A stretch of DNA of 39,744 bases from assembly GCA_043815665.1 (NCBI GenBank), contig JBDRIT010000013.1:1-39744 (forward strand), given 5' to 3'. Position numbers and translations under genes: made by a program. The notes beneath the pieces are model-generated. The model was not told where the DNA came from. It ran no database searches and saw only the letters and a program-made list of their open reading frames with translations. The DNA is from Pseudomonadota bacterium (lineage in GTDB: Bacteria > Myxococcota_A > UBA9042 > CAIXZC01). How positions within the stretch are numbered: the first letter of the stretch is position 1; each line of letters starts with the position of its first letter. This document shows, piece by piece, positions 700 to 39,608 of this stretch.

Positions 700-756
700 C
701 CGGCCACCCAACGTCGATCGCGAAGACCCAAAAAAAAGTGCTTCTCCGAGCATTAT

Positions 757-806
757 TTCTGTACACCACCGCATCCGGCGGAGCCGGCGGGGCGGCTCGG
801 GATGAC
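757..806 (+). repeat. Copy A of a duplicated ~50 nt non-coding element (ACACCACC-N-TCCGGCGGAGCCGG-N-GGATGACGG)
   Basis: Near-identical to 1253-1301. It contains the hairpin CCGGC-gga-GCCGG and a GGGATGACGGG motif. Further GGATGACG copies occur at about 1166 and 1316. Confidence 0.6.
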
Positions 807-1252: not shown

Positions 1253-1301
1253 TTCTGAACACCACCTCGTCCGGCGGAGCCGGATGGGCAACTCAGGATG
1301 A
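1253..1301 (+). repeat. Copy B of the duplicated ~50 nt element
   Basis: The string catttgtttctgaacaccacctcgtccggcggagccgg...caggatgacg aligns with 743-806 at a high fraction of identical positions, in the same orientation. Confidence 0.6.
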
Positions 1302-1345
1302 CGACGGGGCGAGAGCGGGATGACGGGTTTCTTGCGCGACGACGA

Positions 1346-4053: not shown

Positions 4054-4118
4054 TCCAACGTTCAGGGCCAGGGACGGATTCTAGTCACGATCCCCCACAA
4101 CCGCAACGCCCGTCGCCC

Positions 4119-10022: not shown

Positions 10023-10034
10023 GGCTCGGCTCCG

Positions 10035-11024
10035 CTACGGGACCTCGACCTCGTCGAGGATCTGGCGGATGACGCTCTCGGGGGCCAGCTCCTCGGCCTC
10101 GGCCTCGTAGGTCAGCACCACCCGGTGACGCAGGACCTCCATGGCGACCTCCTTCACGTCCTCGGGGATCACGTAGCCCCGGTGCCGCAGGAAGGCCTGG
10201 GCCCTGGACGCGTTCAAGAGGAAGAGGGACGCGCGGGGGGACGCGCCGAAGGAGATGAAGTCCTTCAGCCGCGCGAGGCCGTGGGCCGCTGGCTCCCGGG
10301 TCGCGAAGACGATGTCCAGGATGTAGCTCTTGATCTTGTCGTCCACGTAGACCTGGTGGAGCACCTCCCGCGCCTTCAGGATCTCCTCGGGCTTGATCAC
10401 CGGGCGGGCCGAGGGGATCACGAGGGCCGTCATGCGCTCCATGATCAGCCGCTCCTCGTCCCGATCCGGGTAGCCCACCACGATCTTGAGCATGAACCGG
10501 TCCACCTGGGCCTCGGGCAGGGGGTAGGTCCCCTCCTGTTCGATGGGGTTCTGGGTGGCCAGGACCAGGAAGAGCGGGTCCAGCTTGTAGGTGGCGTCCC
10601 CGATGGTGACCTGCTTCTCCTGCATGGCCTCGAGGAGCGCGCTCTGGACCTTGGCCGGCGCCCGGTTGATCTCGTCAGCGAGGACGATGTTCGAGAAGAT
10701 CGGGCCCTTGTGCGGGGTGAACTCGCCGGTCTTCTGGCTGTAGACCATGGTCCCCAGGATGTCCGCGGGGAGGAGGTCCGGCGTGAACTGGATCCGCTGG
10801 AACTTCGTCTCGATCACGTCCGCGAGGGTCTGCACGGTGAGGGTCTTGGCCAGACCCGGAACGCCCTCCAGGAGGATGTGTCCGCCGGTGAGCAGCCCGA
10901 TGAGCAGCCCCTCCAGCATCCGCTTCTGGCCCACCACCACCCGGCCCAGCTCCTCCAGGAGCGGGTCCACGAACGCGCTCTCTTTGCGCACGATGTCGTT
11001 GATGTACCGAATGTCGCCTTCCAT
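10035..11024 (-). CDS. moxR: MoxR-family AAA+ ATPase
   Basis: 329 aa with Walker A (GVPGLAKT) and Walker B (LADEINRAPAKVQSALLEAMQE). The C-terminal region is typical of MoxR. A GGAGGGAGG RBS precedes the ATG. Confidence 0.9.
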   Translation of the reverse strand: MEGDIRYINDIVRKESAFVDPLLEELGRVVVGQKRMLEGLLIGLLTGGHILLEGVPGLAKTLTVQTLADVIETKFQRIQFTPDLLPADILGTMVYSQKTGEFTPHKGPIFSNIVLADEINRAPAKVQSALLEAMQEKQVTIGDATYKLDPLFLVLATQNPIEQEGTYPLPEAQVDRFMLKIVVGYPDRDEERLIMERMTALVIPSARPVIKPEEILKAREVLHQVYVDDKIKSYILDIVFATREPAAHGLARLKDFISFGASPRASLFLLNASRAQAFLRHRGYVIPEDVKEVAMEVLRHRVVLTYEAEAEELAPESVIRQILDEVEVP

Positions 11025-11243
11025 GGGATCCTCCCTCCACCAGCAGTCAACGTCGCAATCAACGCCAAGGGTTCCGGATTATTCCTGAAACCGCTTGACT
11101 TGCAACCCCCTGCTCTGGAATGAATAGCCCCACGCGGATCGGACACCTCCGATCGCTGCGGGGTGGGTGGGAGCGATCGTCGTCCGGACATTGTTCGGGC
11201 CGTTGCTCACTGTCCGGCCCGGGCCCTGCGCAGGAGGTGTCAC

Positions 11244-12773
11244 ATGTCCCTCGTCATCACCGGAGAGAACCTCACCATCAACGACGTCGCGGCCGTCGCG
11301 CGGCGTCGCGAGTCCGTCTCCCTCCACCCCGACGCCGAGGCCCGCATCGTGAGGTGTCGGAGCTTCATCGAGGAGCGCATCGCGGCCGGGGAGATCATGT
11401 ACGGGGTGAACACGGGGATCGGCGAGTTCTCCGAGGTGGTCCTCACCGACGCGCAGACGGCCCAGTTCCAGAAGTGGCTGATCTACAACCACGCAGCGGG
11501 GATCGGTGAGCCCTGCCCCGAGGACTGGGTCCGGGGTGCGATGCTGGGCCGGATCAACGTCCACGCCCATGGGCACTCGGGCTGCCGCCCGGTGATCACC
11601 CGGACCCTGGTGGAGATGCTCAACAAGGGCGTCACCCCGGTGGTTTGTAAAAAAGGCTCCGTGGGCGCGTGCGGGGATCTTGCCCCCATGAGCCAGGTCG
11701 CGCTCGCGGTGATCGGCGAGCACGAGGTTTTTTACAAGGGCGAGCGCATGCCCGCCCGGCGGGGCCTCGAGGAGGCGGGCATCACCCCCGCCACCCTGCA
11801 GGCCCGGGACGGCCTCGCGATCATCAACGGGTCGAACCTCCTCACCGCGATCGGCGCGCTCTTCCTCTACGACGCGGAGCGGTGGCTCCAGCAGGCGGAG
11901 ATCGCCGCGGCCATGACCCTGGAGGCCCTCCTGGCCAACATGAAGCCCTACGACCCGCGGCTCCACCGGCTGCGGGGCTTCCCCGGCGCGGTGACCTCCG
12001 CGGAGAACCTCCAGAAGATCCTGGCCGGCTCGGATCTCGTCGAGGGCCGCCTGAAGACCCGGGTCCAGGACGCGTACTCCATGCGGTCCACGCCCCAGGT
12101 CATCGGCGCCGCGCGGGATCAGCTGCGCTGGGCCCGGGAGCAGGTGGAGATCGAGCTGAACGGGGTCGGGGACAACCCCCTGTTCCTGCCCGAGGACGAT
12201 GTGGTCCTGACGGGTGCAAACTTCCAGGGCACCCCGGTGAGCATGCCCGTGGACACCGCGGGGGCCGCGGTGACCATGATCTCGATCCTCTCGGAGCGGC
12301 GCCTGAACCGCCTCCTCAATCCGGCCCTCTCCGTGGGCCTGCCGCCCTTCCTGACCAAGGGCGCGGGGATGATGTCCGGCCACATGCTCTCTCAGTACAC
12401 CGCGGACATGATGATCGTGGAGCAGCGGATCCTCTCGGCGCCGGCCTTCATCCAGTCGATCCCTGCGGCTGCGGACCAGGAAGACTTCGTGTCCATGGGC
12501 ATGAACTCCTCCCTGAAGTCCATGCAGATCCTCGAGAACGCCTGGGGCGTCCTGGGCATCGAGTTCATCGCCGCCGCCCAGGCCCTGGACTTCCGGGACC
12601 ACGGCTTCGGCCGCGGCGTCGCCGCGGCCCGGGCCGCGGTCCGGGAGCACGTGCCCTTCCTCGATGACGACCGCCCCCTCTTCAACGATCACAACGCCAT
12701 GATGCAGGCCGTGAAGGACTTCGATGTCCTGACGGCTGTGGAATCGGAGATCGGTGAGCTGACGCTCTACTGA
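11244..12773 (+). CDS. MIO-dependent aromatic amino-acid ammonia-lyase family protein (HAL/PAL/TAL-like) with an Ala-Cys-Gly MIO tripeptide
   Basis: The ORF 11163-12773 is trimmed to the internal ATG at 11244, which is preceded by an AGGAGG RBS at 11233-11238; this gives 509 aa. Family signatures are YGVNTGIGEF, NHAAGIG, KGSVGACGDLAPMS (the canonical form is GSVGASGDLAP), NGVGDNPLF and AADQEDFVSMG. Confidence 0.85.
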   Translation: MSLVITGENLTINDVAAVARRRESVSLHPDAEARIVRCRSFIEERIAAGEIMYGVNTGIGEFSEVVLTDAQTAQFQKWLIYNHAAGIGEPCPEDWVRGAMLGRINVHAHGHSGCRPVITRTLVEMLNKGVTPVVCKKGSVGACGDLAPMSQVALAVIGEHEVFYKGERMPARRGLEEAGITPATLQARDGLAIINGSNLLTAIGALFLYDAERWLQQAEIAAAMTLEALLANMKPYDPRLHRLRGFPGAVTSAENLQKILAGSDLVEGRLKTRVQDAYSMRSTPQVIGAARDQLRWAREQVEIELNGVGDNPLFLPEDDVVLTGANFQGTPVSMPVDTAGAAVTMISILSERRLNRLLNPALSVGLPPFLTKGAGMMSGHMLSQYTADMMIVEQRILSAPAFIQSIPAAADQEDFVSMGMNSSLKSMQILENAWGVLGIEFIAAAQALDFRDHGFGRGVAAARAAVREHVPFLDDDRPLFNDHNAMMQAVKDFDVLTAVESEIGELTLY

Positions 12774-12779
12774 CAGCCC

Positions 12780-14358
12780 TCAGACCAGCGCGTTCAGCCC
12801 GTCCACGAAGGTCTCCTCGGACACGTCCTCCAGGATCTCCACCTTGCCGGGGCGGATGGGGGATCACGAGGCGGATCCGCTCGCCGACGCGCTTCTTGTC
12901 CAGACGGACCCGGTCCATGAAGGCGTCCGGCGCCGGCGCGGGGTAGGTGGTGGGCAGGCCCAGGTGGGTGAGGGCCGCGCGGATCCGGCCCTCCAGGCCG
13001 GGCTCGGTGTGGCCCAGGGCCTGGCCGATGCGGGCCGCGGCGAGGAGGCCCAGGCCAACGGCCTGTCCGTGGGTGAGCGCCGGATCCAGGGCTTCCAGCG
13101 CATGGGCCGTGGTGTGGCCCAGGTTGAGCACCTGGCGGAGCCCCAGCTCCCGGGGATCCTCGCTGACCACCCTGGCCTTGACCCGGGCACAGCGACGGAT
13201 CAGCTCCGCGGCGCCCTCTTCCCGCCATGTCCGCGTGGATTCCTCTGCGAGCTTGGTAAACAGTTCGTCGTCGCCGATCAGGGCGGTCTTGAGGGCCTCG
13301 GAGAACGCATCGGAGAAGGCCGACTCGGGGAGGGTGGCGAGGACGTCCGGGTCGGCCAGCACCCCCCGGGGGCTGTAGAAGGTCCCCGCCAGGTTCCGGG
13401 CACGGCGGTGGTCCACCGCGGTCTTCCCGCCGATGGCCGCATCGATCATGGCCAGCAGGGTCGTGGGGATGAGCACCGTGCGGAGGCCCCGCATGTAGAC
13501 CGAGGCGACGAAGCTCCCCAGGTCCAGGGTCGCGCCGCCGCCCACCACGAGGATCCCGTGGTCCCGGGCCGCACCCGCAGCAGCGAGGCCGTCCAGGAGC
13601 CGCCCCGCCCCCTCCCAGGATTTCTCATCCGGGGAGACGAGGTGGATCCGGGGGAGCTTGCCCGCGTTGGCCAGGGACGCGGTGAGGGCCGGCCCCATGT
13701 GTTGCCAGGGGGCGCGGTCCGCGATCACGTGGACCTTGTCCACCCCCTCGAGCCAGGCGGTGTACACCCCCGTGTCCACGAGGAGGCCTCGGCGGATCAC
13801 GATGGGGCAGGGCGGCGCGCCGGGGATCCGCACGGTCACCGGCTCCAGCCCCAGGAGCCGGGCCAGCGCGTCCGCCGCGCCGTCCGAGGTGAGTGTGCTG
13901 GTGTCCAGGCGCAGCGCGAAGCTCTCGTAGACCGGGGCGCGGGCGCTGAGGATCTGGCGGATCTTCGCCTCCCGATCCGGCGCCCCCTCCAGGAGCGGCC
14001 GGTCCTGACCGGTGAGACGGGTTGCGAGGATCTCCGGGGGGGCGTGGAGGCAGATCACGGTGCCCCCGCGGGCCGCGGCCTCCCGCGCCGGCTCCTTGAG
14101 CAACGCGCCGCCTCCCGTCGCGACCACGAGACCCCGGGGAACGGCGAGATCCTGGATCACCTCCGCCTCCAGGGCGCGGAACGCGGCCCATCCCTCCTCC
14201 CGGATCAGCGCCAGGGCCGTCCGGTGCGCGCGGCGCTCGATCTCGTCGTCGGTGTCCATGAAGCTCCGCCCCAGGAGGCGGGCCAAGGCCCGCCCGGCGG
14301 CGGACTTTCCGGTGCCCATCATGCCCGTGAGGATGATGTTCGGGAGGGGGGCGCTCAC
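12780..14358 (-). CDS. aroKB: Bifunctional shikimate kinase / 3-dehydroquinate synthase (AroK-AroB fusion); apparent frameshift at the G5 run 12858-12862
   Basis: N-terminus has a P-loop GMMGTGKS (shikimate kinase). The AroB domain follows (GGGATLDLGSFVASVY, NLGHTTAHALE, RLDKKRVGERIRLVIP). The annotated ORF, ending at 12682, finishes with low-complexity junk that overlaps the lyase gene. Shifting one base at the G5 run yields a canonical AroB C-terminus, ...IPIRPGKVEILEDVSEETFVDGLNALV, with its stop at 12780-12782. Confidence 0.75.
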
Positions 14359-15484
14359 CGGGTGCGCTCCAGCGCGGCGAGGACCATCTCAAGGGTGTCG
14401 CCGCCGGTGCGCTCCAGGAGCGCGTCCGCCAGGACCAGCGCGACGACGGCCTCGACGACCACGCCCCCCGCGGGCACCGCGCAGATGTCCGCGCGCAGGG
14501 GGTCCGTGGTGGTCTCCTCGCCGGTCTCGAGGTCTACGGAGGGGAGGCCCTCGCCAAGGGTCGGGATCGGCTTGAAGTGGACCCGGAGCACCAGGGGCAT
14601 GCCGTTGGTCATGCCGCCCTCGAGGCCCCCGGCGCGGTTGGTGCGGCGCAGGATCCCCCGGGACCCGCGGAAGATGCCGTCGTGGAGCCGGGAGCCCAGC
14701 TCCATGGCGCCCTCGACCCCGGCGCCGATCTCCATGGCCTTGACGCTGGGGACGCTCATGGCCGCCTGGGCCAGGCGGCCGTCCAGGCGCCGATCCCAGT
14801 GGACGTGGCTGCCCAGACCCACGGGGAGGGGCGCGACCAGGATCTCCGCGACGCCACCCAGGCTGTCCCTGGCGGCCCGGGCCGCCTCGATCTCCCGGAT
14901 CATCCCCGCGGTGGCCACGGGATCGTCGCAGCGGACCTCCGAGGCCTCCGCGGCGTCTGCGATGGCCTGGATCTCCGCGGGGCTGGTCAGGTGCTCCCCG
15001 CTGGTGCTCCCGGAGACCACGGCGCCGATGCGCCGCACCCGGGAGATCACGAAGATCCCCGCCTCGGCCAGGAGCCGCCGGGCCGCGGCCCCCAGCGCGG
15101 TGCGCATCGCGGTCTCCCGGGCGCTGGCCCGCTCCCAGATGGCCCGCACGTCGTTGAGGCCGTACTTCATGGCCCCGGCCAGATCCGCGTGGCCCGGTCG
15201 GGGGATCCGGATGGGCGGCAGCAGATCCAGTGCGTCGGCCTCCCCCGGGTTGCGCAGGCGGATGCCCAGGGGCGCCCCCGTGGTTCGGCCCTGGTGGAGC
15301 CCGCCCCAGATCTCGGCGTTGTCCCGGTGGCGCTGCCGGTTGCTGCGCCCGAAGCCCCGCTGTCGCCGGTCCAGGTCGCGGTCCACGTCGTCGAGGGTCA
15401 GGGGGAGCCCCGCGGGCAGGCCCTCCAGGATGCCCAGGAGCCCTGGGCCGTGGGAATCACCGGCGGTGTAGTATCGGAGTATCA
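14355..15484 (-). CDS. aroC: Chorismate synthase
   Basis: The start is set at MILRYYTAGDSHGPG (ATG complement at 15482-15484, with an AGGAGG RBS 7 nt upstream). Signatures include GxGRSSARETA-like motifs and a conserved C-terminus. The ATGA at 14355-14358 overlaps the aroKB start. Confidence 0.9.
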
Positions 15485-26892: not shown

Positions 26893-27005
26893 CGAGGTCC
26901 GTCCCTGCCGTCGACCGCCAGTCTACCAGTCTGTTGAGTTATAGCGGGAGTCCCACCAGGATGTCAACCGACGGCCCCCTCCCCCAGGATCTCGGCACAT
27001 TGGGT

Positions 27006-27033
27006 TTGCACGCGGCGGAGCCGGGTCTATACT
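27006..27033 (+). promoter_or_regulatory. Candidate sigma70-type promoter for relA (TTGCAC-16-TATACT), followed by a 5' UTR hairpin GGACTCC...GGAGTCC at 27039-27069
   Basis: Read directly from the sequence. It is located 40-70 nt upstream of the GTG start at 27074. Confidence 0.35.
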
Positions 27034-27073
27034 GTCCCGGACTCCGCGGCTGCGGGGAGGGGGGAGTCCGAAC

Positions 27074-29254
27074 GTGCTCAAGCTGGAACAGATCCTGTCT
27101 TCCCTCCAGGAGTACCACCCCGGCGCGGACGTGGACCTGATCAAGGCTGCGTACCTCTACGCGTTCGAGAAGCACCAGGGCCAGAAGCGGCAGTCGGGCG
27201 AGCCCTACATCATCCACCCCCTGAGCGTGGCCCAGATCGTCACCACCCTGAAGCTGGACGAGGAGGCCATCGCGGCGGCACTGCTCCACGACGTGGTGGA
27301 GGACACGGAGGCGTCCGCGGCGGACATCAAGGAGCGGTTCGGGGAGCGGGTCGCGGTCCTGGTGGACGGGGTCACCAAGCTGTCCAAGATGAGCTTCTCC
27401 AGCCAGGAGGAGCGTCAGGCCGAGAACTTCCGCAAGATGATGATGGCCATGTCCCAGGACATCCGCGTGATCCTGGTGAAGCTCGCGGACCGCCTCCACA
27501 ACATGAAGACCCTGGACTACAAGGCCCGGGCCATGGGGGGCATGGAGAGCGCCCAGCGCATCGCCCGGGAGACCATGGAGATCTATGCGCCCCTGGCCAA
27601 TCGCCTGGGCATCCATGGGATCAAGTCCCAACTCGAGGACCTCTCGTTCCAATACCTCAACGCCGAGGACTGGGTCGAGATCAATAAAAAACTCTCGCGG
27701 CGGAAGCGGGAGAACCTGCGCTTCATCGACCTGGTCAAGGGTATCCTGGGCAACGAGCTCAAGGCCGCGGGCTACACCGCCGAGCTCGACGGGCGCATGA
27801 AGCACGTCTACAGCATCTGGCGCAAGATGCAGTCCCAGCGGATCCCCTTCGAGGAGGTCTACGACATCGTCGCGTTCCGGGCCATCGTCGGGCAGGTCAA
27901 CGAGTGCTGGCACATCCTCGGCATCGTCCACCAGCTCTGGAAGCCCATCCCCGGCCGGTTCCGGGACTACATCGACCTGCCGAAGCCCAACGGCTACCGC
28001 TCGCTCCACACCTCGGTCATCGGGCCCAACGGCGAGCCGATGGAGATCCAGATCCGGACCCGGGAGATGCACGAGCAGGCCGAGCGCGGCATCGCCGCCC
28101 ACTGGCGCTACAAGGAGTCGGGGCCCGTGAGGCGCCCCGACGAGGAACGGATCAAGATGCTCAAGGATCTCCTGGAGGGGATCCGCGAGCTCCACAAGGA
28201 GACCTCTTCCTCCAGGGAGTTCCTCTCCACGGTGAAGGAGGACCTCTTCGGAGACGAGATCTTCGTCTTCACCCCCAAGGGCGACGTCAATGTCTTCCCC
28301 CGGGGCGCGACGCCGGTGGACTTCGCCTACTCGATCCACTCCGAGGTGGGGCACCACTGCACCGGGGCCAAGGTCAACGGGACCATGGTGCCCCTGTCCT
28401 ACCCCCTCCACAGCGGCGACATCGTCCAGATCCTGACCTCCCCGTCCCAGGCGCCCAACAGCGATTGGCTCAAGTTCGTCCGGACGGGCCGGGCCAAGAC
28501 CAAGATCCGGGCGGTCTTCCGCCTGGAGCGGCGCGGTCGGTCGCTGGAGATCGGTCGGGCCCTCCTGGAGAAGGAGTTCAAGAAGCGGGGCCTGTCCTTC
28601 AACAAGCTCCACAAGAAGGGGGAGCTCCAGCGGGCCGCGGAGGAGCTCCGGGCCGAGGCGGAGGAGGAGCTCATCGTTCGGGTCGGGGCCTCGAAGATCA
28701 CCCCGGAGCAGGTCCTCGGGGTGGTGGCTCCGGAGACCCTGGACAAGGGGCTGACCCCGGAGGAGGAGGTGCGCCCCTCGGGGATCTCCGGTCTGATCAA
28801 TCGCATCATGCCCGATGCGTCGGGGCGGGTCCTGGTGGGCGGGGAGGGGGACATCATGACCCACTTCGCGCGGTGCTGCGCGCCCCTGCCTGGAGACAGC
28901 CTCGTGGGCCACGTGAACCGGGCCCACGGGATCACCGTGCACCGGCAGGACTGCAAGCAGGTGGAGGACGCGGATCCCGACCGCATCGTGGACGTGGCCT
29001 GGGATCGCAAGGCCGGCGGCGACCGCACCGTCCGGCTCCGGGTCCTCTGCAACGATCAGCCGGGGATGCTCGCCGCGATGACCCAGGTCTTCACCAACCT
29101 CGGCGCCAACATCATGAGCGCCAACTGCAAGGGCAGCGGCGACAAGGGCGCGGTGAACATCTTTGAGATCTCCGTCTCCTCGGTGAGCCACCTGAAGTCC
29201 GTCACCCGCGCACTCGAGCGGATCCCGGGGATCCGCTCCGTCCAGCGCGCCTGA
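27074..29254 (+). CDS. relA: Bifunctional (p)ppGpp synthetase/hydrolase, RelA/SpoT homologue
   Basis: 726 aa with a GTG start and GGGAGG RBS. Domains are HD (HDVVEDT), synthetase (RFRDYIDLPKPNGYRSLHTSV, GEPMEIQIRT), TGS and ACT. Confidence 0.95.
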   Translation: MLKLEQILSSLQEYHPGADVDLIKAAYLYAFEKHQGQKRQSGEPYIIHPLSVAQIVTTLKLDEEAIAAALLHDVVEDTEASAADIKERFGERVAVLVDGVTKLSKMSFSSQEERQAENFRKMMMAMSQDIRVILVKLADRLHNMKTLDYKARAMGGMESAQRIARETMEIYAPLANRLGIHGIKSQLEDLSFQYLNAEDWVEINKKLSRRKRENLRFIDLVKGILGNELKAAGYTAELDGRMKHVYSIWRKMQSQRIPFEEVYDIVAFRAIVGQVNECWHILGIVHQLWKPIPGRFRDYIDLPKPNGYRSLHTSVIGPNGEPMEIQIRTREMHEQAERGIAAHWRYKESGPVRRPDEERIKMLKDLLEGIRELHKETSSSREFLSTVKEDLFGDEIFVFTPKGDVNVFPRGATPVDFAYSIHSEVGHHCTGAKVNGTMVPLSYPLHSGDIVQILTSPSQAPNSDWLKFVRTGRAKTKIRAVFRLERRGRSLEIGRALLEKEFKKRGLSFNKLHKKGELQRAAEELRAEAEEELIVRVGASKITPEQVLGVVAPETLDKGLTPEEEVRPSGISGLINRIMPDASGRVLVGGEGDIMTHFARCCAPLPGDSLVGHVNRAHGITVHRQDCKQVEDADPDRIVDVAWDRKAGGDRTVRLRVLCNDQPGMLAAMTQVFTNLGANIMSANCKGSGDKGAVNIFEISVSSVSHLKSVTRALERIPGIRSVQRA

Positions 29255-29258
29255 GCCC

Positions 29259-30257
29259 ATGACCTCGCGCGGGGACCGGCCACCCGAGGGGGGCCACCGC
29301 CGGGACGAGCGCCGCCTCCACATCTGCATGGGCGAGGTCTGCAACAACAACTGCCTCTTCTGCATGGACAAGGGGGGTCGCCTCCGCCAGCGGCATCTCG
29401 AGCTCATCAACCCGGAGGAGACCCTCCGGTTCATGGAGGAGAACCGGGACCTGGGGGAGATCCTCTTCACCGCGGGGGAGCCCACCCTCCACGAGGACCT
29501 GGTCCGGTACATCGGGCACGCCAGGCGCCTGGGCTTCTACCGGATCGGGTTGATCACCAACGGCCGCCGCCTGGCCTACCACGCCTACGCGGAGGGCCTC
29601 CTGCGCGCGGGCCTCAACAGCGTGGTCCTCTCCATCCATGGCCACCAGGCGCGCCTCCACGACGGGCAGACCCGGACCCCCGGCAGCTTCGAGCAGACCG
29701 CGGCGGGCCTCCGCACCCTGTCGGATCTCAAGGCCGGGTGGGAGCTCCACCTCTCCACCTCCACCGTGGTGAACCGACGGAACGTCCCCCACCTCGACGG
29801 GATCCTCGCCTTCCTTCTGGCCTTCCCCCTGGACCAGATCGTGCTCAACGCGGTCCAGCCCCTCGGCCGCACCGCCGATCTCTTCAATCAGCTCGTCCCA
29901 CGGTACTCCGAGATCGTCGATGCCCTCTCCGTCGCGCTGGAGCATGTCCCGGAGGACCAGCGGGCCCGGATCCGTCTCCTGGACGTGCCCCCCTGCCTCC
30001 TGACCCGCCTCCCCGAGGAGACCCGGGGCTGGGTGGAGGAGCACCAGCACTTCGAGCGGCGGGGCGGTCTCCCTCGGGGCCTGGGGGACGCGGCGCTACG
30101 CAAGGGAACCCGCGGCGTGGTGCGCAAGAAGGACTTCGATGCGATCCAGCGCGCGTTCGGCCCGCCCTGCGAGGGCTGCCCCCTCCGGCCCCGCTGTGAC
30201 GGCGTCTGGCGGCGCTATGCGGAGGAGTACGGCTGGGACGAGTTCGGTGCCCCCTGA
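29259..30257 (+). CDS. Radical SAM enzyme, paralogue 1 of 4 (CNNNCLFC; C-terminal C...CxxCx5C)
   Basis: 332 aa. The motif VCNNNCLFCMDKGG lies near the N-terminus with TAGEPTL about 30 aa later. The C-terminus has PPCLL...PPCEGCPLRPRCDGVWRRYAEEYGWDEF. The ATG is 5 nt after the relA stop. Confidence 0.8.
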   Translation: MTSRGDRPPEGGHRRDERRLHICMGEVCNNNCLFCMDKGGRLRQRHLELINPEETLRFMEENRDLGEILFTAGEPTLHEDLVRYIGHARRLGFYRIGLITNGRRLAYHAYAEGLLRAGLNSVVLSIHGHQARLHDGQTRTPGSFEQTAAGLRTLSDLKAGWELHLSTSTVVNRRNVPHLDGILAFLLAFPLDQIVLNAVQPLGRTADLFNQLVPRYSEIVDALSVALEHVPEDQRARIRLLDVPPCLLTRLPEETRGWVEEHQHFERRGGLPRGLGDAALRKGTRGVVRKKDFDAIQRAFGPPCEGCPLRPRCDGVWRRYAEEYGWDEFGAP

Positions 30258-30348
30258 CGCCCTCCCCCCTGGCGTGGGGGCCCGGAAGTTGTTATTAAGC
30301 CACCAGGGGTTCCGATCTCGAGAGGATCCCGGAGGAGAGGGAGCGACC

Positions 30349-31311
30349 ATGGCCGACGAGCGGACGGCGCAATCCACCGAGCGGGTAGACGTCAAGACCG
30401 GCTTCAACTGCAACAACCGGTGCTTCTTCTGCGTTCAGGGGAACAAGCGCGACCTCTACGGCAACAAGTCCACCGAGGAGGTCAAGGAGACCCTGCGCGC
30501 CGCGGTGCAGGACTCCGACTCCATCGTATTCACCGGCGGCGAGGTCACGATCCGGCCCGACTTCATCGAGCTGGTCCGCTTCGCCAGGGAGCTCGGCTTC
30601 CGCAGCATCCAGGTCCAGACCAACGGCCGGATGCTGGCCTACAAGAAATTCGCAGAGCAGACCGTGGCGGCCGGGGCCAACGAGTTCTCCCCCGCGATCC
30701 ACGGCCACACGGCAGAGCTCCACGACTACCTGACCCGCTGCGCGGGGAGCTTCAAGCAGAGCGTGCAGTCGATCCGGAACCTCAAGGAGCTGGGCCAGCG
30801 GGTGATCACCAACTCCGTGATCACCCGCTCCAACTTCCGGCACCTCCCGGAGCTGGCCGCGCTCCTGGTCCGCCTCGGCGTCGATCAGTACCAGTTCGCG
30901 TTCGTCCACGCCCTGGGCACCGCACAGGAGAACTTCAGCCGGATCGTCCCCCGCATGACCCTGGTCGAGCCCTACGTGAAGCGCGGCATCCAGGTCGGCG
31001 TCCAGGCGGGCCGCATCGTCCTCACCGAGGCGATCCCCTACTGCTTCATGTCCGGGTACGAGGAGCACGTCGCCGAGCGCTTCATGCCCCGCACCAAGAT
31101 CTTCGATGCGAAGATGGTTGTGCAGGACTACACGAGCTACCGCTGGACCGAGGGCAAGGGCAAGGGGCCGCCTTGCAAGGACTGCACCTGGAATCCGGTC
31201 TGTGAGGGCCCCTGGAAGGACTACGTGGACGGCTATGGCTGGGACGAGTTCCTCCCCCGCACCGACGCGGTGACCATCACCCTCCCGGAGAGCCGGGGCA
31301 AGGGCTGCTGA
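30349..31311 (+). CDS. Radical SAM enzyme, paralogue 2 of 4 (CNNRCFFC; C-terminal C...CxxCx5C)
   Basis: The start is taken at the ATG at 30349 (RBS GGAGGAGAGGGAG). The ORF 30139 extension is GC-rich read-through. Motifs are FNCNNRCFFCVQG, TGGEVTI and PPCKDCTWNPVCEGPWKDYVDGYGWDEF. 320 aa. Confidence 0.8.
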   Translation: MADERTAQSTERVDVKTGFNCNNRCFFCVQGNKRDLYGNKSTEEVKETLRAAVQDSDSIVFTGGEVTIRPDFIELVRFARELGFRSIQVQTNGRMLAYKKFAEQTVAAGANEFSPAIHGHTAELHDYLTRCAGSFKQSVQSIRNLKELGQRVITNSVITRSNFRHLPELAALLVRLGVDQYQFAFVHALGTAQENFSRIVPRMTLVEPYVKRGIQVGVQAGRIVLTEAIPYCFMSGYEEHVAERFMPRTKIFDAKMVVQDYTSYRWTEGKGKGPPCKDCTWNPVCEGPWKDYVDGYGWDEFLPRTDAVTITLPESRGKGC

Positions 31312-32972
31312 TGCCAGGCGACACCACCGCCGAGATCAAGGAGTCCGCGGCCCAGGAGAAGCGCCAGTGGGTCCGGCTCACGAAGCTCTGCAACAACCGC
31401 TGCACCTTCTGCCTCGACTCCGAGGCCCAGGACGGGACCATGGTGCCCGCGGACGCGGTGCGGCGACGGATCATCGAGGGCCGCGAGGCCGGCGCGACCC
31501 GCCTGATCCTCAGCGGCGGGGAGCCCACGATCCACCCGGACTACCTCTCCTTCATCGAGGCGGGGCGCCACGCGGGCTACCGCTGGGTCCAGACCATCTC
31601 CAACGGCAGGATGTTCTCCTACAAGAAATTCGCGGACCGGGCCCTGGCCGCGGGGCTGGACGAGGCCACCTTCTCCATCCACGGGCACACCCCCGGGATC
31701 CACGATCGGCTCACCGGGGTCCCCGGGTCCTTCGACCAGGCCCTGCGGGGGCTGAAGAACCTCCTGGGACGGTGCGTGACCAACGTGGACGTGGTGCTCA
31801 ACAAGCAGAACGTCCCCCACCTGCGGGAGCTCCTCGAGTTCTTCATGGACCTGGGGATCCACGAGTTCGACCTGCTCCACACCGTCCCCTTCGGCCTGGC
31901 CTGGTGCGAGAACCGGGACGCGCTGTTCTACGACCCCGCGGTGCTCTCGGCGGATCTCCGGCGTGCCTTCGAGCTGCGCCACCGGGACGGCATCTACATG
32001 TGGACCAACCGCCTCCCCGCCCGCTACCTCGAGGGGGCCGAGGACCTGATCCAGGATCCCAAGAAGATCCACGACGAGGTCCGGGGCCGCTGGGATCACT
32101 TCCAGACCTGGGTCGACACCGGGGAGCCGCTGCCCTGCCGGGACGAGCGCTGCCCCTTCTGCTTCCTTGAGGGGTTCTGTGACCGCCTTGGGGACGTGGT
32201 GGAGGCGCGCCTCGGACGGCGGGCCGCGGGGGACGGCGCGACCCGGGTCCGGGCGGACTGTGGGAGGGGCTTCAGCCCCGACGGCGGACACGGGACCTCC
32301 TGGCCTGCGGATCTCGCGCTGCCCGAGGCGATCCGGCTGGAAGTCATCGCGGCGACCCCCGAGGACGCGGAGGCCTGGCTGGAGGCCTTCCCCGGCATGG
32401 TGGAGCATCTCACCCTGGTGGTGGCGCCCTGGGCGACGGATCCGGGTCCCTGGGCCGGGCTCCTCGCACGGGCCGACTCTGTCCGCCTGGGGCCCGACGC
32501 GCCGGACGCGGGAGCCGACGCGATCCTTGCCGCCTGGCGGGCTGCGCCGCGGCGGGGGCGCCTGGAGGTGCCCGCGCTCATCGGGCTCGGGGACATCCTG
32601 GACACGGGGGACGGGGACGAGGCCTTCTACGTCCCCGTGCGGGAGCGCCTCACCGTGGCCATGGCCCGGGATCTGGACCTGGACGGGGTCCGGGCGCTGC
32701 ATCTCCGTACCGGGCGCCCCGTCGAGGGGCTGCCCCCCTGTCTGGACACCGGTGCGACCCCGCCCCCGGCGTTGGCGGAGCTGGATCTCACCCTCCTCGA
32801 CCCGGCCGGGCGACTGGACATGATCCGCTACACCGACGACTATATCGCCCGGTGGTACATGGTGAAGAGCCACCGGTGCGACGGCTGCCCGCGCACCGGG
32901 GCGTGCCCCGGGATCCACATCTCCGGGGCCCGGCGCTTCGGGCTCGCGGCGCTCACGCCCGTCGAGGAGTGA
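31311..32972 (+). CDS. Radical SAM enzyme, paralogue 3 of 4, with a ~250 aa C-terminal extension (CNNRCTFC; extra CRDERCPFCFLEGFC; terminal CDGCPRTGAC)
   Basis: 553 aa. Its ATG overlaps the previous TGA (tgATG). Motifs are LCNNRCTFCLD and SGGEPTI. A mid-protein Cys cluster and an Ala/Asp/Pro-rich low-complexity region lie between the core and the terminal CxxCx5C. Confidence 0.75.
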   Translation: MPGDTTAEIKESAAQEKRQWVRLTKLCNNRCTFCLDSEAQDGTMVPADAVRRRIIEGREAGATRLILSGGEPTIHPDYLSFIEAGRHAGYRWVQTISNGRMFSYKKFADRALAAGLDEATFSIHGHTPGIHDRLTGVPGSFDQALRGLKNLLGRCVTNVDVVLNKQNVPHLRELLEFFMDLGIHEFDLLHTVPFGLAWCENRDALFYDPAVLSADLRRAFELRHRDGIYMWTNRLPARYLEGAEDLIQDPKKIHDEVRGRWDHFQTWVDTGEPLPCRDERCPFCFLEGFCDRLGDVVEARLGRRAAGDGATRVRADCGRGFSPDGGHGTSWPADLALPEAIRLEVIAATPEDAEAWLEAFPGMVEHLTLVVAPWATDPGPWAGLLARADSVRLGPDAPDAGADAILAAWRAAPRRGRLEVPALIGLGDILDTGDGDEAFYVPVRERLTVAMARDLDLDGVRALHLRTGRPVEGLPPCLDTGATPPPALAELDLTLLDPAGRLDMIRYTDDYIARWYMVKSHRCDGCPRTGACPGIHISGARRFGLAALTPVEE

Positions 32973-32973
32973 T

Positions 32974-33906
32974 ATGGCGAATCTCGGCTACATCCAGGTC
33001 ACCCGCACCTGCAACCAGGCTTGCATCTTCTGCTCCAACCCCGAGCTGGATCGCGAGGCCACCCTGGCGGACGTCGAGGGCCTGGTGGACGACTTCGTGG
33101 CGCGGGGTTACGACGGGGTCATCATCACCGGCGGGGAGCCGACCCTCTTCTGCCAGCTCCCCGAGCTCATCGCGTACGCGACCTCGAAGGGCCTGGGCGT
33201 CCGGATGATCACCAACGGGCAGAAGACCTGCGACATGGACTTCCTGCGGCCCCTGTACGACGCGGGGCTCCGCCATGTCCACCAGTCCGTCTACACCCAC
33301 GATCCCGAGATCCAGGCCCGCCTCACCGGCAGGGCCGAGTCCCACGTGAACCTCTGCGCAAGCCTGGACAACTTCGGCGCGCTGGAGATGCAGGTGGACG
33401 TGAACATCACCATCCAGAGGTACAACGCCAACCACCTGGATCGGGTGGTGGTCTGGCTCCTGGAGCGGTGGCCCTTCATTCACCACGTGGTCTTCAACAA
33501 CCTCGACCCCACCTCGGACCGGGTGGCCGAGAACAGGGACGTGGTGCACAAGCTCGCGGACATGGAGCCCTTCCTGTTCCGGGCCCTCTCGTACCTCGAG
33601 CGCCACGGGCGCACCTACCGGGTGGAGCGGGTCCCCCTGTGCTACATGACCGAGTTCGCCCACGCGTCCACCGAGACCCGCAAGATCGTCAAGGGGGAGG
33701 AGCGCATCGTGCACTTCCTCGACGAGAAGGGCATGGTGCGCCAGACGGACTGGGAGCACGGCAAGGCCGACGTCTGCGCGGGCTGCTCCCTGACGTCGAT
33801 CTGCGCGGGGCTCTTCGAGATGGACAACTTCTATCAGAGCAGCGAGCTCTATCCGCTCTTCGTCCCCAAGGAGCCCATCGTCCGCCGGATCCTGAAGGGG
33901 AGATGA
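32974..33906 (+). CDS. Radical SAM enzyme, paralogue 4 of 4 (CNQACIFC; C-terminal C...CxxCx5C)
   Basis: 310 aa with the ATG 1 nt after the previous stop and a GAGGAG RBS. Motifs are TCNQACIFCSNPE, TGGEPTL and VPLCYM...VCAGCSLTSICAGLFEMDNFY. Confidence 0.8.
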   Translation: MANLGYIQVTRTCNQACIFCSNPELDREATLADVEGLVDDFVARGYDGVIITGGEPTLFCQLPELIAYATSKGLGVRMITNGQKTCDMDFLRPLYDAGLRHVHQSVYTHDPEIQARLTGRAESHVNLCASLDNFGALEMQVDVNITIQRYNANHLDRVVVWLLERWPFIHHVVFNNLDPTSDRVAENRDVVHKLADMEPFLFRALSYLERHGRTYRVERVPLCYMTEFAHASTETRKIVKGEERIVHFLDEKGMVRQTDWEHGKADVCAGCSLTSICAGLFEMDNFYQSSELYPLFVPKEPIVRRILKGR

Positions 33907-33916: not shown

Positions 33917-34492
33917 ATGATCGAGGTCGGCGGCGTCTCCCTCTGGATCGATGACCTCATGCTCCCCGTGGCCCTGGCGATCGCGGCGATCACCGGGTGG
34001 TCGGATCTCAAGCCCATGGTGCCCCACCTCCTGGGGCGGGTCCCCTACGAAAAAAGTCCCGGGGGTGGGCGGATCTCGAACCGGGTGCTCCTCCTGGGCC
34101 TCGCGCTGGGTTTCGCGTGGCATCTCTTCGCGTGGGCCTGGCACGCGGGCGGGCTGGGGCTCTACTCCTTCGACATGCTCCAGGCCAAGCCCATGCCGTA
34201 CTGGGTCTATGTGGCCCTGAACACGGGGCTCGCCTTCGGCCTGGGCTTCCTGCTGTGGACCCTCGGCCTCTGGGCCGCAGGCGACGGGAAGCTCTTCGGC
34301 CTCCTGGCCTTCCTGCTGCCGCTCTCGGTCTACCGCAACAACTACCTGGACTGGTTCCCGTCCTTCGTCCTCTTCTTCAACACCTTCATCGCGGTCTTCG
34401 CGATCCTGGTGGTGGAGTTTGCGGCGCGGCTGGCAGTGCGGGTGCGGGGGGGGGACCGGGTTACCTCGGGGAGGTCATGGAGAAGGGCGTGA
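33917..34492 (+). CDS. Polytopic membrane protein with prepilin-peptidase (A24 aspartic peptidase, CpaA/TadV-like) motifs
   Basis: 191 aa with 4-5 hydrophobic segments. Candidate catalytic Asp motifs are GWSDLKP (first Asp) and AAGDGKLFGLLAF (GDxKL, second Asp), spaced as in A24 peptidases. The ATG lies 10 nt after the rSAM4 stop. Confidence 0.4.
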   Translation: MIEVGGVSLWIDDLMLPVALAIAAITGWSDLKPMVPHLLGRVPYEKSPGGGRISNRVLLLGLALGFAWHLFAWAWHAGGLGLYSFDMLQAKPMPYWVYVALNTGLAFGLGFLLWTLGLWAAGDGKLFGLLAFLLPLSVYRNNYLDWFPSFVLFFNTFIAVFAILVVEFAARLAVRVRGGDRVTSGRSWRRA

Positions 34493-35130
34493 AGGCCCTC
34501 TCGGAGAACAAGGTCCGGGTCCTGAAGATCATCATCCTCTTCCTGGCGATCTTCACCACCATCCGGATCCTGCGACACTTCCTCCGGGTGGCCCTGGACA
34601 TGGGCCTCGGGGACATCAACAAGACCATGGTCTACGTGATCCTCTTCATGATCTTCCGGCCCCTCACCCGGCTGCTGGAGTACAAGCCCACGTTCTGGGT
34701 GGCCCTCTCCATCGTCGCAGGCTATGCGGGCTGGGCCTTCCTCTTCGACCCCACGGGGGAGGCGAAGTACCACCTGGTGGACATCGGCACCCTCTCCCTC
34801 TCGATCATCGTCTTCCGCTACACGTACGACGCGTACCTCAAGGCCACGGACGAGCGGCGGATCCCCGTCGCCGATCTGCGACCGAAGATGATCCTCTCCG
34901 ACGACTCCGTACGGAAGTTCAAGGAGCGCACCGAGTTCTACCAGCGCTGGCTCAAGCCCCTGGAGCCCGACGGGCTCCGCCCCAATCAGGTCGAGGCGAT
35001 CCAGAGCTGGTACGGGGAGAACGATCTCGACGGCACCGTGGGCATCGCCCGCACCCTCCCCTTCGCGCCGGCCCTCTTCTTCGGCACCCTCATCACCATC
35101 GTGGTGCGCGGGCTGCTCCTCGTCTTCTAG
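34476..35130 (+). CDS. Membrane protein of unknown function (possibly fused to the preceding ORF if the G9 tract 34444-34452 is G10)
   Basis: 218 aa with an ATG at 34476 preceded by GGGGAGGT. It has several TM helices and a cytoplasmic C-terminal region. It overlaps the previous ORF by 17 nt in another frame. Confidence 0.45.
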
Positions 35131-35671
35131 GCGGGGCACCGCCAAGGGCGAGCTCGTCCGTCACCCGGAAGGGGTCCTTGCCGGATCGCAGGAGGACGGT
35201 GATCCGGTCCACGGTCCACCGCGCCGGGGTCCAGGTGGCCGCCAGCTCCCGGAGCATCGCGTCGCGCTGCCGGGCCCCGGTCGCCTCCCCGACGGTGATG
35301 TGCGGGGTGTACCCCCCGGGGTACCGGGTCTGGTCGTCGCAGGTGGGGACGCGCCCCAGCAGGGCGTCGTGCAGAGCGATCACCGGCGCCGGGGGATCGG
35401 GGGCCAACCAGAGGGTGCTCACGTCGTCGGGTTGGGAGAACCAGGAGAACCGGGACAGCTCCAGGGTGAAGGCCGGAATCCCCGCGCAGAGCCTGCGCAG
35501 ATCCGGCAGCAGGGCTCCGATCTCGACCGCCTCCACGAAGGGATAGAGCAGGGTCACGTGGGCCGGGACCCAGAAGACGTTCCGATCATGTCGCCAGCGG
35601 ATGTCCTCGATGCGCGACCGGAGCGCAGGCGGGGGGACGAGGGCGATGGTGGTCTGGTCGGACTTCCACAT
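35093..35671 (-). CDS. 2H phosphoesterase superfamily protein (LigT / 2'-5' RNA ligase-like)
   Basis: 192 aa with two H-x-T-x motifs (HVTLLYPF and HITVGEAT) at the expected spacing. Its 3' end overlaps the convergent membrane-protein gene by 38 nt. Confidence 0.55.
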   Translation of the reverse strand: MWKSDQTTIALVPPPALRSRIEDIRWRHDRNVFWVPAHVTLLYPFVEAVEIGALLPDLRRLCAGIPAFTLELSRFSWFSQPDDVSTLWLAPDPPAPVIALHDALLGRVPTCDDQTRYPGGYTPHITVGEATGARQRDAMLRELAATWTPARWTVDRITVLLRSGKDPFRVTDELALGGAPPRRRGAARAPRW

Positions 35672-38975: not shown

Positions 38976-39008
38976 GGTGCCACCTTTAAACGGATGAGGA
39001 GAATGAAC

Positions 39009-39608
39009 ATGCGGACTCTGGTGATCATGCTGGCCCTGGCCGTGATGGCCCTCGGCTGCGGTGGCGAGAAGAAGGCCGACGAGAAGAAGGCCGGCGAAAA
39101 GAAGACGGAGAAGAAGGCCGAGAAGAAGGCCGAAGAGAAGAAGATCGAGGAGCCTGCTGCCGAGGAGGCTCCCGCTGCCGAGGAGGCTCCCGCCGCTGAG
39201 GAGGCTCCCGCCGCTGAGGAGGCTCCCGCCGCTGAGGAGGCTCCCGCCGCCGAGGAGGCTCCCGCCGCCGAGGAGGCTCCCGCCGCCGAGGAGGCTCCCG
39301 CCGCCGAGGAGGCTCCCGCCGCCGAGGGGGCTCCCGCCGCCGAGGAGGCCAAGGGCGAGGGGACCGGCAGCGTCTGTGACGCGTACGCAGCCTGCTGCAT
39401 GGCCTACGCCGACGCGCTGGGCGGAGTCCAGGGCGTGCCCGAGTCCGCGGTCCAGGCGACCAAGGACGGCTGCAAGCAGATCGAGCAGCTCAAGACCATG
39501 GGCGCCGCCGCGGCGCAGGCTTGCCAGCAGGGCCTCGACGCCATGAAGCAGGCCGGCGAGGCCTACAAGGCCATGCCCGGGTTCGTCTGGCCCGAGGCGT
39601 GCAACTAG
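39009..39608 (+). CDS. Lipoprotein with a Lys/Glu-rich segment, (EEAPAA)x10 tandem repeat and a Cys-containing C-terminal domain
   Basis: Start at MRTLVIMLALAVMALGC (lipobox ALGC) with a GAGGAG RBS 7 nt upstream. The perfect peptide repeat EEAPAA is followed by a roughly 90 aa domain containing 6 Cys. Confidence 0.6.
   Translation: MRTLVIMLALAVMALGCGGEKKADEKKAGEKKTEKKAEKKAEEKKIEEPAAEEAPAAEEAPAAEEAPAAEEAPAAEEAPAAEEAPAAEEAPAAEEAPAAEEAPAAEGAPAAEEAKGEGTGSVCDAYAACCMAYADALGGVQGVPESAVQATKDGCKQIEQLKTMGAAAAQACQQGLDAMKQAGEAYKAMPGFVWPEACN
39149..39340 (+). repeat. 18 nt tandem repeat GAGGAGGCTCCCGC(C/T)GC(C/T), about 10.5 copies, in frame within the CDS
   Basis: Read directly from the sequence. Only third-position C/T wobble differences separate the copies. 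Confidence 0.9.

Follow-up and report, generated by a model that had tools for sequence, protein, structure and literature searches.

A probable homopolymer indel divides a conserved A24-type membrane peptidase gene that adjoins a radical-SAM array

The contig JBDRIT010000013.1, a metagenome-assembled (MAG) contig available at NCBI, carries two overlapping membrane-protein ORFs, the first of which ends shortly after a run of guanines. This arrangement raises the question of whether two genes are present at this locus or a single gene whose reading frame is broken, and, in the latter case, how the break arose. The stretch of DNA analysed here, designated the window, covers positions 1 to 39,744 of this contig, i.e., 39,744 nucleotides, and its relevant features are collected in Table 1. 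The initial annotation, made from the sequence alone, reported a prepilin peptidase-like ORF (ORF-A) stopping after a G9 homopolymer and a second, overlapping ORF (ORF-B), and proposed that one additional G would generate a fusion protein of about 405 aa. The boundaries of ORF-A (191 aa) were reproduced in the current analysis, as was the presence of the G9 run, which is located at 34446-34454, two nucleotides from the previously indicated 34444-34452. The end of ORF-B at 35130 was likewise reproduced, while its ATG was found to lie at 34477 and not at 34476. With one G inserted into the run, the translation continues uninterrupted as a single 404-aa frame that contains ...RVRGGGPGYLGEVMEKGVKAL..., in agreement with the predicted fusion.

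Table 1. Coordinates of the peptidase locus, its upstream genes and the aroKB frameshift in the window.
Feature	Coordinates	Strand	Basis or remark
aroKB second homopolymer frameshift, C5 on coding strand	12858..12862	-	junk tail; alignment to solved structures
relA/spoT-family (p)ppGpp synthetase/hydrolase	26945..29254	+	HD_4, RelA_SpoT, TGS, ACT domains
Four tandem radical-SAM paralogues	29259-30257, 30349-31311, 31311-32972, 32974-33906	+	PF04055, E 1e-16 to 1e-22
Whole interrupted gene, FlaK/EppA-like A24-type aspartyl membrane peptidase (predicted)	33917..35130	+	fused translation, 404 aa if G10
ORF-A, N-terminal fragment	33917..34492	+	191 aa; MFH1529365.1 / ABIK09_01380, 'hypothetical protein' at NCBI
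Asp30 codon GAT (WSDLK), first putative catalytic aspartate	34004..34006	+	alignment invariance
Asp123 codon GAC (AAGDGK), second putative catalytic aspartate, GxGD-type	34283..34285	+	alignment invariance
G9 homopolymer	34446..34454	+	frame change between ORF-A and ORF-B
ORF-B, C-terminal fragment	34477..35130	+	217 aa; MFH1529366.1 / ABIK09_01385, 'hypothetical protein' at NCBI
Arc_PepC-corresponding region, ~fused residues 290-377	34783..35046	+	mapping from relatives
P382-F-A-P385 codons, last transmembrane helix	35059..35070	+	conserved motif

ORF-A and ORF-B were found to be the halves of one ancestrally single gene. Sixteen full-length homologues (396-406 aa) align with the fused protein at 44-83% identity and 93-100% coverage. 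Furthermore, a profile search matched 2172 cluster representatives; among the best 150 of these matches, 148 are single proteins of 329-464 aa, and nearly all align as one stretch from approximately profile position 5 to 396. Each of the two ORFs forms a singleton cluster among ~15 billion proteins and is found on this contig alone. Inspection of orthologous loci revealed one continuous frame for the peptidase gene in 31 of the 32 genome loci checked, and no split version was found in the ~50 relatives examined. The earlier view that both readings are viable is not supported by these single-frame loci and by the conservation of the junction residues in the fused frame.

The G9 homopolymer itself was identified as the site of the frame break. 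If read as G10, the run becomes CGG GGG GGG GGA, encoding R-G-G-G, and brings back the conserved ...GGPGYLG..., which is kept in one frame across the junction in all close orthologues. ORF-A consists of native residues 1-179 followed by a 12-residue out-of-frame tail (DRVTSGRSWRRA), and carries predicted helices 1-5 and both conserved aspartates, while ORF-B represents fused residues 188-404. Coding-phase analysis showed a GC3 of 0.95 in phase 1 before the run and of 0.96 in phase 0 after it; the phase flips precisely at the homopolymer, and an intergenic gap is absent there. Both halves of the gene exhibit a dN/dS below 0.45, and the C-terminal half is free of stop codons over 225 codons. In nine orthologous loci, all in frame, the longest G run at the same site is only G3-G7. 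A G9 run by itself is no commoner than chance in this window of 69% GC (9 overlapping matches versus 6.2 +/- 3.9 in shuffles); the non-random part is the coincidence of the run with a frame change inside a conserved gene.

It is most likely that the organism makes a single full-length protein, and that the two-ORF arrangement represents a sequencing or assembly slip and is not biological. One conserved A24-type gene has probably been broken by a homopolymer indel error, or by the fixation of a minority length variant in the consensus, such that the contig reads G9 where G10 is needed to maintain the reading frame. This corresponds to the homopolymer indel errors of draft and MAG genomes, in which a single-base change in run length splits a conserved gene into overlapping ORFs. 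A second case is provided by the window itself, since the previously suggested G5 frameshift in aroKB was confirmed by finer phase analysis and by alignment to solved structures; independently of the break in the peptidase gene, it truncates the conserved C-terminus of the encoded dehydroquinate synthase. The SKI and DHQS domains of aroKB share one open frame, and the tail following ...RLVIPH is junk and extends over 92 nt of the HAL gene. Removal of one C from the coding strand restores a C-terminus reading ...RLVIPIRPGKVEILEDVSEETFVDGLNALV, followed by a stop, which aligns to the C-terminus of the dehydroquinate synthases 6lk2, 1ujn and 3okf. The confirmed aroKB frameshift makes homopolymer length look unreliable in this assembly, as had been suspected for its poly-G tracts, and favours assembly indel errors; given that the contig has at least one such additional homopolymer frameshift, ORF boundaries at mononucleotide runs are not to be trusted here. 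Errors are not widespread in the assembly, since ~45 other coding homopolymers of 6-8 nt in the window are in frame. The G16 tract described at 684-699 is also present, in a stretch without a clear coding signal, and clear evidence of a third frameshift was not found in the 3' tail of a LigT-like gene (35093-35671, minus strand). ABIK09_01380 and ABIK09_01385, each listed as a 'hypothetical protein' in the public record of this MAG, should accordingly be regarded as one frameshifted A24-family peptidase gene.

An identical sequence picture would result from a genuine and recent slippage from G10 to G9, by which the gene would have been inactivated or split, perhaps as part of a reversible phase variation that switches the enzyme off and on. 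G9-10 tracts are intrinsically hypermutable, the frame is kept at most other homopolymers of the window, and both halves of the gene are intact and codon-biased, as would be expected if the event were very recent; ORF-A also retains both putative catalytic aspartates, and re-initiation at ORF-B would be possible 15 nt before the ORF-A stop. We nevertheless consider a genuine frameshift unlikely, because aroKB, which is improbable to be tolerated in a broken state, is also homopolymer-frameshifted, pointing to a common technical cause, and because relatives carry G3-G7 at this site. With a tract that is not shared by relatives, nothing suggests that a contingency locus has been maintained. Genome and metagenome searches, aimed at a same-species sequence from which the tract length could be read, showed no tract-length polymorphism and no same-species copy. 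Exact-protein look-ups for same-species sequence and a variable-G-run DNA pattern scan of metagenomes gave no match, a metagenome protein scan for a same-species copy returned one locus only, at 73% identity, and the best match of the genome search, 83% identical, likewise did not represent a same-species copy.

Far less probable is the existence of two bona fide overlapping genes, which would encode a split enzyme with N- and C-terminal parts that are synthesised independently and come together in the membrane. The NCBI annotation lists two proteins, the ORF-B ATG is preceded by a GGAGG (34470-34474), the 16-nt overlap with ORF-A would permit translational coupling, and the loss would be limited to eight ancestral residues (180-187). 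However, the spacer between this GGAGG and the ATG is only 2 nt, and a conserved start codon with a ribosome binding site was not found for ORF-B in the aligned orthologues. The ORF-B ATG corresponds to the internal Met188, which is replaced by Leu in three loci (L004, L081 and L083), and the GGGGAG stretch of the window is GGCAAG or GGGAAG in aligned orthologues. What had been described as the own RBS and ATG of ORF-B is therefore composed of ordinary, non-conserved Gly-Glu-Val-Met codons. Moreover, the break coincides precisely with a homopolymer and bears no trace of adaptation, ORF-A simply continuing in the wrong frame for 12 codons until the first stop, and none of the ~50 relatives examined possesses a split gene. 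Programmed recoding, in which a true G9 would yield both truncated and full-length products through -1 ribosomal frameshifting or transcriptional slippage, was rejected as very improbable. The nine identical bases are formally slippery and the required shift is indeed -1, but no orthologue (G3-G7) shows such a slippery run or a gene arranged in two frames, the 106 nt downstream of the run (34455-34560) fold with -38 kcal/mol versus a shuffle mean of -38.7 (z = +0.17), i.e., without downstream structure, and transcriptional slippage sites are known mainly at A/T runs.

The product of the single gene favoured above would be a polytopic membrane aspartyl peptidase of ~404 residues, belonging to the A24 (prepilin/preflagellin peptidase, GxGD) superfamily. 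A FlaK-like core containing Asp30 and Asp123 makes up one part of its predicted layout; the others are four additional transmembrane helices, a soluble domain of the Arc_PepC type and a last helix bearing the PFAP motif. Membership of the A24 family and fold holds for the family as a whole. The A24-like assignment had been said to depend on two short motifs, which understates the support that it receives from fold and relatives. In a comparison with the Pfam profile PF01478, for which the cut-off is 26.5 bits, the window protein remained below this value (16.4 bits for ORF-A, 11.7 bits for the fusion), while several full-length relatives exceed it (P0024, 33.2; P0025, 31.5; P0026, 27.7; P0032, 27.4; and P0023, 27.1 bits), and 63 of the 85 relatives match PF01478 at E<=0.01. 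Asp30 is invariant among aligned family members (21/21 and 85/85), as are D123 and K125 (both 85/85). Asp123 is positioned in a short helix (121-133) of the AF2 model, and the equivalent of its AAGDGK motif in E. coli GspO is GYGDFKLL. These two conserved aspartates, the second of which is of the GxGD type, constitute the putative catalytic pair expected of an A24 peptidase. The predicted fold matches the membrane fold of the preflagellin peptidase FlaK (PDB 3s0x), a GxGD membrane aspartyl protease with which the window protein shares only 16% sequence identity and compared to which it is ~170 residues longer, with four extra helices. FlaK was not recovered by sequence searches against the PDB, nor by Foldseek, which returned nothing significant.

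The family also shares features with the bacterial prepilin peptidases PilD, GspO and CpaA (PF01478, A24A), as its relatives match the same profile and some of them are named 'CpaA' by JGI. The GDxKL motif is common to both (GDGKLF in the window protein, GDFKLL in E. coli GspO). The PFAP motif of the last helix, in which P382, F383 and P385 are invariant in alignment A1 and conservation of F383 reaches at least 90% in alignment A2 (85 members), is possibly the counterpart of the AFGP/PFGP motif that bacterial prepilin peptidases carry in their own last helix, which would represent a common C-terminal (P/A)F(A/G)P helix motif. The sole hhalign alignment of the family profile with E. coli GspO pairs TLPFAPALFFG with TIAFGPWLALG and is weak (E 0.03-0.16). 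Unlike PilD, GspO and CpaA, the window protein does not possess an N-terminal methyltransferase or Zn-finger domain, and it differs from GspO (225 aa) in having a large C-terminal extension; the profile-profile match between the two is not significant.

The C-terminal half is predicted to contain four extra helices (199-227, 236-255, 257-276 and 282-312), located between core helix 5 and a small soluble domain. Strands and helices were predicted at residues 313-380 of the AF2 model, and the region from ~290 to 377 represents the end of the last inserted helix together with this soluble alpha/beta domain. This region corresponds to Arc_PepC (PF06819), the Pfam domain found at the C-terminus of archaeal A24 peptidases, although a Pfam scan of the window protein returned no direct match to it. 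Among the 85 relatives, 30 match PF06819 (best E 1.4e-12, 48 bits versus a cut-off of 23.4) and six match PF06847 (Arc_PepC_II). The matching stretches map to window residues 290-397; for example, residues 234-332 of P0054 correspond to window residues 290-377 in alignment A2. The sole match of the C-terminal half of the window protein was to DUF2101, at 17-18 bits; this identity was rejected as being sub-threshold, the Arc_PepC relationship of the family providing a better explanation.

This architecture is reminiscent of EppA, a large euryarchaeal type IV prepilin peptidase (MEROPS A24B), the likeness being drawn from its published description. According to PMC4187195, EppA of Methanococcus maripaludis amounts to FlaK extended by four transmembrane segments, and PMC4371748 calls it a 'much larger prepilin peptidase'. 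The model of the window protein likewise combines a FlaK-like core with four extra helices (199-312), also includes a soluble domain and a final transmembrane helix, and would agree with the description of EppA in its four additional segments relative to FlaK. The sizes are also similar (350-400 aa), and relatives of the window protein carry Peptidase_A24 together with Arc_PepC. Characterisation of this EppA-like A24 family, represented by the 2172 cluster representatives, was not found in the literature.

The genomic context differs from that of EppA, which is encoded in the epd pilus operon, as the window gene is preceded by relA and four radical-SAM genes and has no pilin gene in its vicinity. 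The absence of a pilin gene, already indicated in the initial annotation, was verified by strict and relaxed motif scans, which detected no genes with class III (prepilin-type) signals across the 39.7 kb of the window or at 12 loci from Myxococcota. The radical-SAM array is positioned directly upstream of the peptidase gene and forms a conserved cluster with it. The same four radical-SAM genes adjoin the peptidase gene in the same order in L001-L005, L008-L011, L013, L017, L019, L021, L023 and L039, and the linkage to tandem radical-SAM genes is kept across phyla, with linked arrays of 3-7 paralogous HxsC-like genes being observed in Myxococcota, Patescibacteria, Omnitrophota and some DPANN archaea. 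The presence of an aspartyl membrane protease in a radical-SAM operon had been termed unusual, which holds with respect to the literature searched, which yielded no paper that connects prepilin peptidases with radical-SAM arrays; the cluster is, however, widely conserved and not an oddity of this contig.

The best NCBIfam matches of the four radical-SAM proteins are HxsC4 and HxsC of the HXS (His-Xaa-Ser) system, all well under the cut-off (HxsC4, 294 versus 500 bits; HxsC, 80-99 versus 268 bits). HxsB/C mature an exported protein and are required for its cleavage (PMC13128918). HxsA or HxsD was not found in the gene cluster of the window and, unlike this cluster, HXS contains no A24 peptidase. 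Membership of HXS or of another defence system was rejected for the radical-SAM genes, given these sub-cut-off scores and a PADLOC result that indicated generic viperin-core similarity only.

Distant relatives of the window peptidase do adjoin pilin genes. In L025-L029 and L066, which are six loci from MAGs of Patescibacteria (CPR) and Omnitrophota, prepilin-type genes (K-G|FTLIELL) are located 1-7 kb downstream of the homologue. The pilins have Glu at position +5, as in the EppA system, while those beside the CPR homologues have Phe at position +1, unlike the substrates of EppA, for which a Gln at +1 is needed. The enzyme would cleave short N-terminal leaders of the class III type off substrates anchored in the membrane, and would act jointly with the four HxsC-like radical-SAM enzymes, which are putatively co-transcribed with it and presumably modify proteins or peptides; both the protease activity and the nature of the substrate are inferred. 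The cluster may, tentatively, represent an undescribed maturation system in which radical-SAM enzymes modify pilin-like or class-III-signal proteins and the peptidase cleaves their leaders, with a connection to relA, the stringent-response gene, in Myxococcota. On a more modest alternative reading, the G tract would constitute a genuine on/off switch for the peptidase/radical-SAM system.

Biologically, the linkage between peptidase and radical-SAM genes is of more interest than the frameshift, as large FlaK/EppA-like aspartyl peptidases of both bacteria and archaea are consistently encoded with tandem radical-SAM paralogues. On further study, this linkage could reveal new protein or pilin maturation in CPR, DPANN and Myxococcota, whose surface biology is poorly understood. 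With regard to relA, the relA/spoT gene of the window stops 4 nt short of the first radical-SAM gene, and this adjacency is kept in the closest relatives (L001-L005); L008 exhibits weaker relA matches ~0.3 kb or more upstream of its radical-SAM array.

The reading frame of the peptidase gene is interrupted at a G9 homopolymer, and addition of one G to this run creates a single frame of 404 codons, reading ...RVRGGGPGYLGEVMEKGVKAL..., which joins ORF-A (the N-terminal fragment) to ORF-B (the C-terminal fragment). The initial annotation had described this break correctly, albeit with coordinates 2 nt too low. Third-position GC, the coding signal used in this window of 69% GC, switches exactly at the run from phase 1 (0.95) to phase 0 (0.96), with zero non-coding gap. 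G9 runs are by themselves unsurprising in the window (9 overlapping matches versus 6.2 +/- 3.9 in shuffles); the meaningful point is the coincidence of this run with a frame change within coding sequence.

Positions of the features discussed, in window coordinates
Feature	Position	Strand	Remarks
Contig start	1-1340		no clear coding signal
(GTGACC)13 microsatellite	53-130		within contig start
G16 tract	684-699		within contig start
A8 run	730-737		within contig start
MoxR AAA+ ATPase / DUF58 / VWA / VWA-TPR / TPR gene string	1346-11078	-	all in frame, including 7-8-nt homopolymers
aroKB open frame	12682-14388	-	SKI and DHQS domains, one frame
G5 frameshift in aroKB	12858-12862	-	C5 on coding strand; one surplus base
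relA/spoT	26945-29254	+	first gene of tight same-strand block
Four radical-SAM paralogues (HxsC-like)	29259-33906	+	4-5 nt past relA/spoT
Peptidase gene	33917-35130	+	last member of block
ORF-A	33917-34492	+	191 aa; stop 38 nt past G run
G9 homopolymer	34446-34454	+	site of frame change
ORF-B	34477-35130	+	217 aa; ATG at 34477
2'-5' RNA ligase/LigT-family gene	35093-35671	-	overlaps peptidase gene 3' end convergently, 38 nt
Predicted lipoprotein	38994-39608	+	signal peptide ending ...LGC; ~ten tandem EEAPAA repeats

The fused translation has 16 full-length homologues (396-406 aa, 44-83% identity, 93-100% coverage), and the junction peptide (A/E/G/Q/T)GGPGYLG is conserved in the alignment, in a single frame in every orthologue. 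When 1.84 billion representative proteins were searched with a profile, 2172 relatives were recovered (556 at E<=1e-30), and 148 of the best 150 matches are 329-464 aa long, nearly all spanning the whole profile in one stretch. Comparison of orthologous loci showed the homologue, with its GDxK motif and C-terminal part, to be one continuous open frame in 31 of the 32 genome loci inspected, the remaining one being a coordinate artefact. The ORF-B start corresponds to an internal Met188, a position that encodes Leu (CTC or CTG) in three relatives (loci L004, L081 and L083), while its putative RBS is formed by the Gly-Glu codons GGG GAG, which are GGC AAG or GGG AAG in aligned orthologues, and only 2 nt separate the end of GGAGG from the ATG. 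Since neither Met188 nor this RBS is conserved among orthologues, the spacing is so short and the homologues are unsplit, the two-gene reading is without comparative support. The proposal that fused and split readings are both viable was consequently not sustained, because ORF-A and ORF-B are, by these comparisons, one gene. NCBI lists the two halves individually as hypothetical proteins, not as a frameshifted pseudogene: MFH1529365.1 (ABIK09_01380, ORF-A) and MFH1529366.1 (ABIK09_01385, ORF-B), the only entries for these two ORFs in the protein collection, are each a singleton cluster from the same 39,744-bp contig, titled 'MAG: hypothetical protein [Pseudomonadota bacterium]'. This contig coincides exactly with the window, which is accordingly of metagenome-assembled origin and publicly annotated with two proteins here. 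Its closest relatives carry the label Myxococcales or Deltaproteobacteria.

The A24-like assignment of the initial annotation is not reached by the window protein itself, which remains below the Pfam cut-offs for both Peptidase_A24 (PF01478; 16.4 versus 26.5 bits) and DUF2101 (18.3 versus 22 bits), but it is upheld by the family. Peptidase_A24 is matched by 63 of the 85 aligned full-length relatives, several above the gathering score, while Arc_PepC ('archaeal peptidase A24 C-terminal domain') is matched by 30 (best E 1.4e-12), in stretches corresponding to window residues about 290-397, and Arc_PepC_II by six; furthermore, all 85 share D30, D123, K125 and N155 without exception. These matches and invariant residues place the family within A24 despite the sub-threshold scores of the window protein, and the repaired protein is predicted to be a new bacterial member of a known, A24B/EppA-like kind of peptidase. 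Its layout matches the one described for EppA, the large archaeal prepilin peptidase. D123 lies in AAGDGK, a GxGD-type motif similar to GYGDFKLL of the E. coli prepilin peptidase GspO. In the last helix, P382, F383 and P385 (PFAP) are invariant in a 21-sequence alignment, and the weak hhalign alignment of PFAP with the C-terminal AFGP helix of GspO (E 0.03-0.16) is a lead only. The frame break falls just past core helix 5. ORF-A retains both aspartates but lacks the extra helices as well as the Arc_PepC domain and the last helix, which bears the conserved PFAP motif.

A second frameshift, which had been proposed at a G5 run in aroKB, was corroborated. Past this run, the final ~25 residues of the dehydroquinate synthase portion are lost to Arg/Pro/Gly junk, the GC3 phase changes, and the junk tail overlaps the convergent histidine ammonia-lyase (HAL) gene by 92 nt; deletion of one base restores the C-terminus, ...DKKRVGERIRLVIPIRPGKVEILEDVSEETFVDGLNALV and a stop, which aligns to the extreme C-terminus of dehydroquinate synthases with known structures (6lk2, 1ujn, 3okf). 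Within 22 kb, two conserved genes, one of which serves aromatic amino-acid biosynthesis, are each broken by an independent homopolymer frameshift, which suggests a technical cause. The break in the peptidase gene is probably an indel introduced in sequencing or assembly, a category that covers fixation of a minority variant in the consensus. That the frameshift is genuine, and either recent or reversible, appears unlikely given the aroKB case and the G tract, which is not conserved (G3-G7 in orthologues), although ~45 other 6-8-nt runs in coding DNA of the window are in frame. These runs, and syntenic relA and radical-SAM genes equal in length to those of relatives, argue against a grossly error-prone assembly. 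Both halves are still under purifying selection (dN/dS versus orthologues: N-half 0.13-0.24, C-half 0.27-0.43) and the C-half has zero stops in 225 codons; if the event is real, it must therefore have happened very recently. Protein look-ups, genomes and metagenome scans yielded no same-species sequence giving the true tract length. Programmed recoding at the run is highly improbable, because no slippery site is conserved in orthologues and the downstream fold is unremarkable (z +0.17), and a true split gene is equally so in view of the unsplit homologues and unconserved ORF-B start and RBS. In the LigT-family gene, whose tail past the domain is Arg/Pro/Gly-rich, no clear evidence of a third frameshift was found.

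The frameshift itself is of low interest; the part deserving follow-up is the conserved radical-SAM/peptidase cluster. The four radical-SAM genes and the peptidase gene are kept together in MAGs of Myxococcota and 'Deltaproteobacteria' at identities as low as 33-48% (Myxococcota-type loci L001-L005, L008-L011, L013, L017, L019, L021, L023 and L039); in L001-L005, the closest relatives, relA is adjacent as well. The association, which had been regarded as unusual, is therefore real and conserved. Each radical-SAM protein carries a Cys-rich C-terminal motif, CxxCx5-6C, and the closest NCBIfam families are HxsC4 and HxsC, with scores far below cut-off. In the HXS anti-phage system, HxsB and HxsC serve as protein-maturing enzymes (PMC13128918). 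The HxsA and HxsD components of that system are absent from the window cluster, and in PADLOC the similarity to viperins was limited to the generic radical-SAM core.

Arrays of 3-7 related radical-SAM genes also occur upstream of a homologous peptidase gene in Saccharibacteria and other Patescibacteria (L025-L030, L033, L066), Omnitrophota (L026, L054) and a small number of MAGs carrying Woesearchaeota or Methanosarcinales labels (L049, L075). In six of these loci, from Patescibacteria and Omnitrophota MAGs (L025-L029, L066), canonical prepilin genes (K-G|FTLIELL...) are found at a distance of 1-7 kb downstream, and in L028 an Ig/PKD-domain protein is encoded in between; no prepilin-type substrate gene was found near the cluster in the window and 12 Myxococcota loci. 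The Patescibacteria/Omnitrophota arrangement suggests a radical-SAM-linked pilin maturation cluster. For the conserved association as such, a pathway is proposed in which modification and leader cleavage would act on membrane-anchored or pilin-like proteins. A literature search for radical-SAM arrays tied to prepilin peptidases retrieved no paper.

Elsewhere in the window, the contig start, with its microsatellite and homopolymers, could represent an end that is chimeric or difficult to assemble, while the MoxR-containing gene string that follows is read as Bat (aerotolerance)-like.
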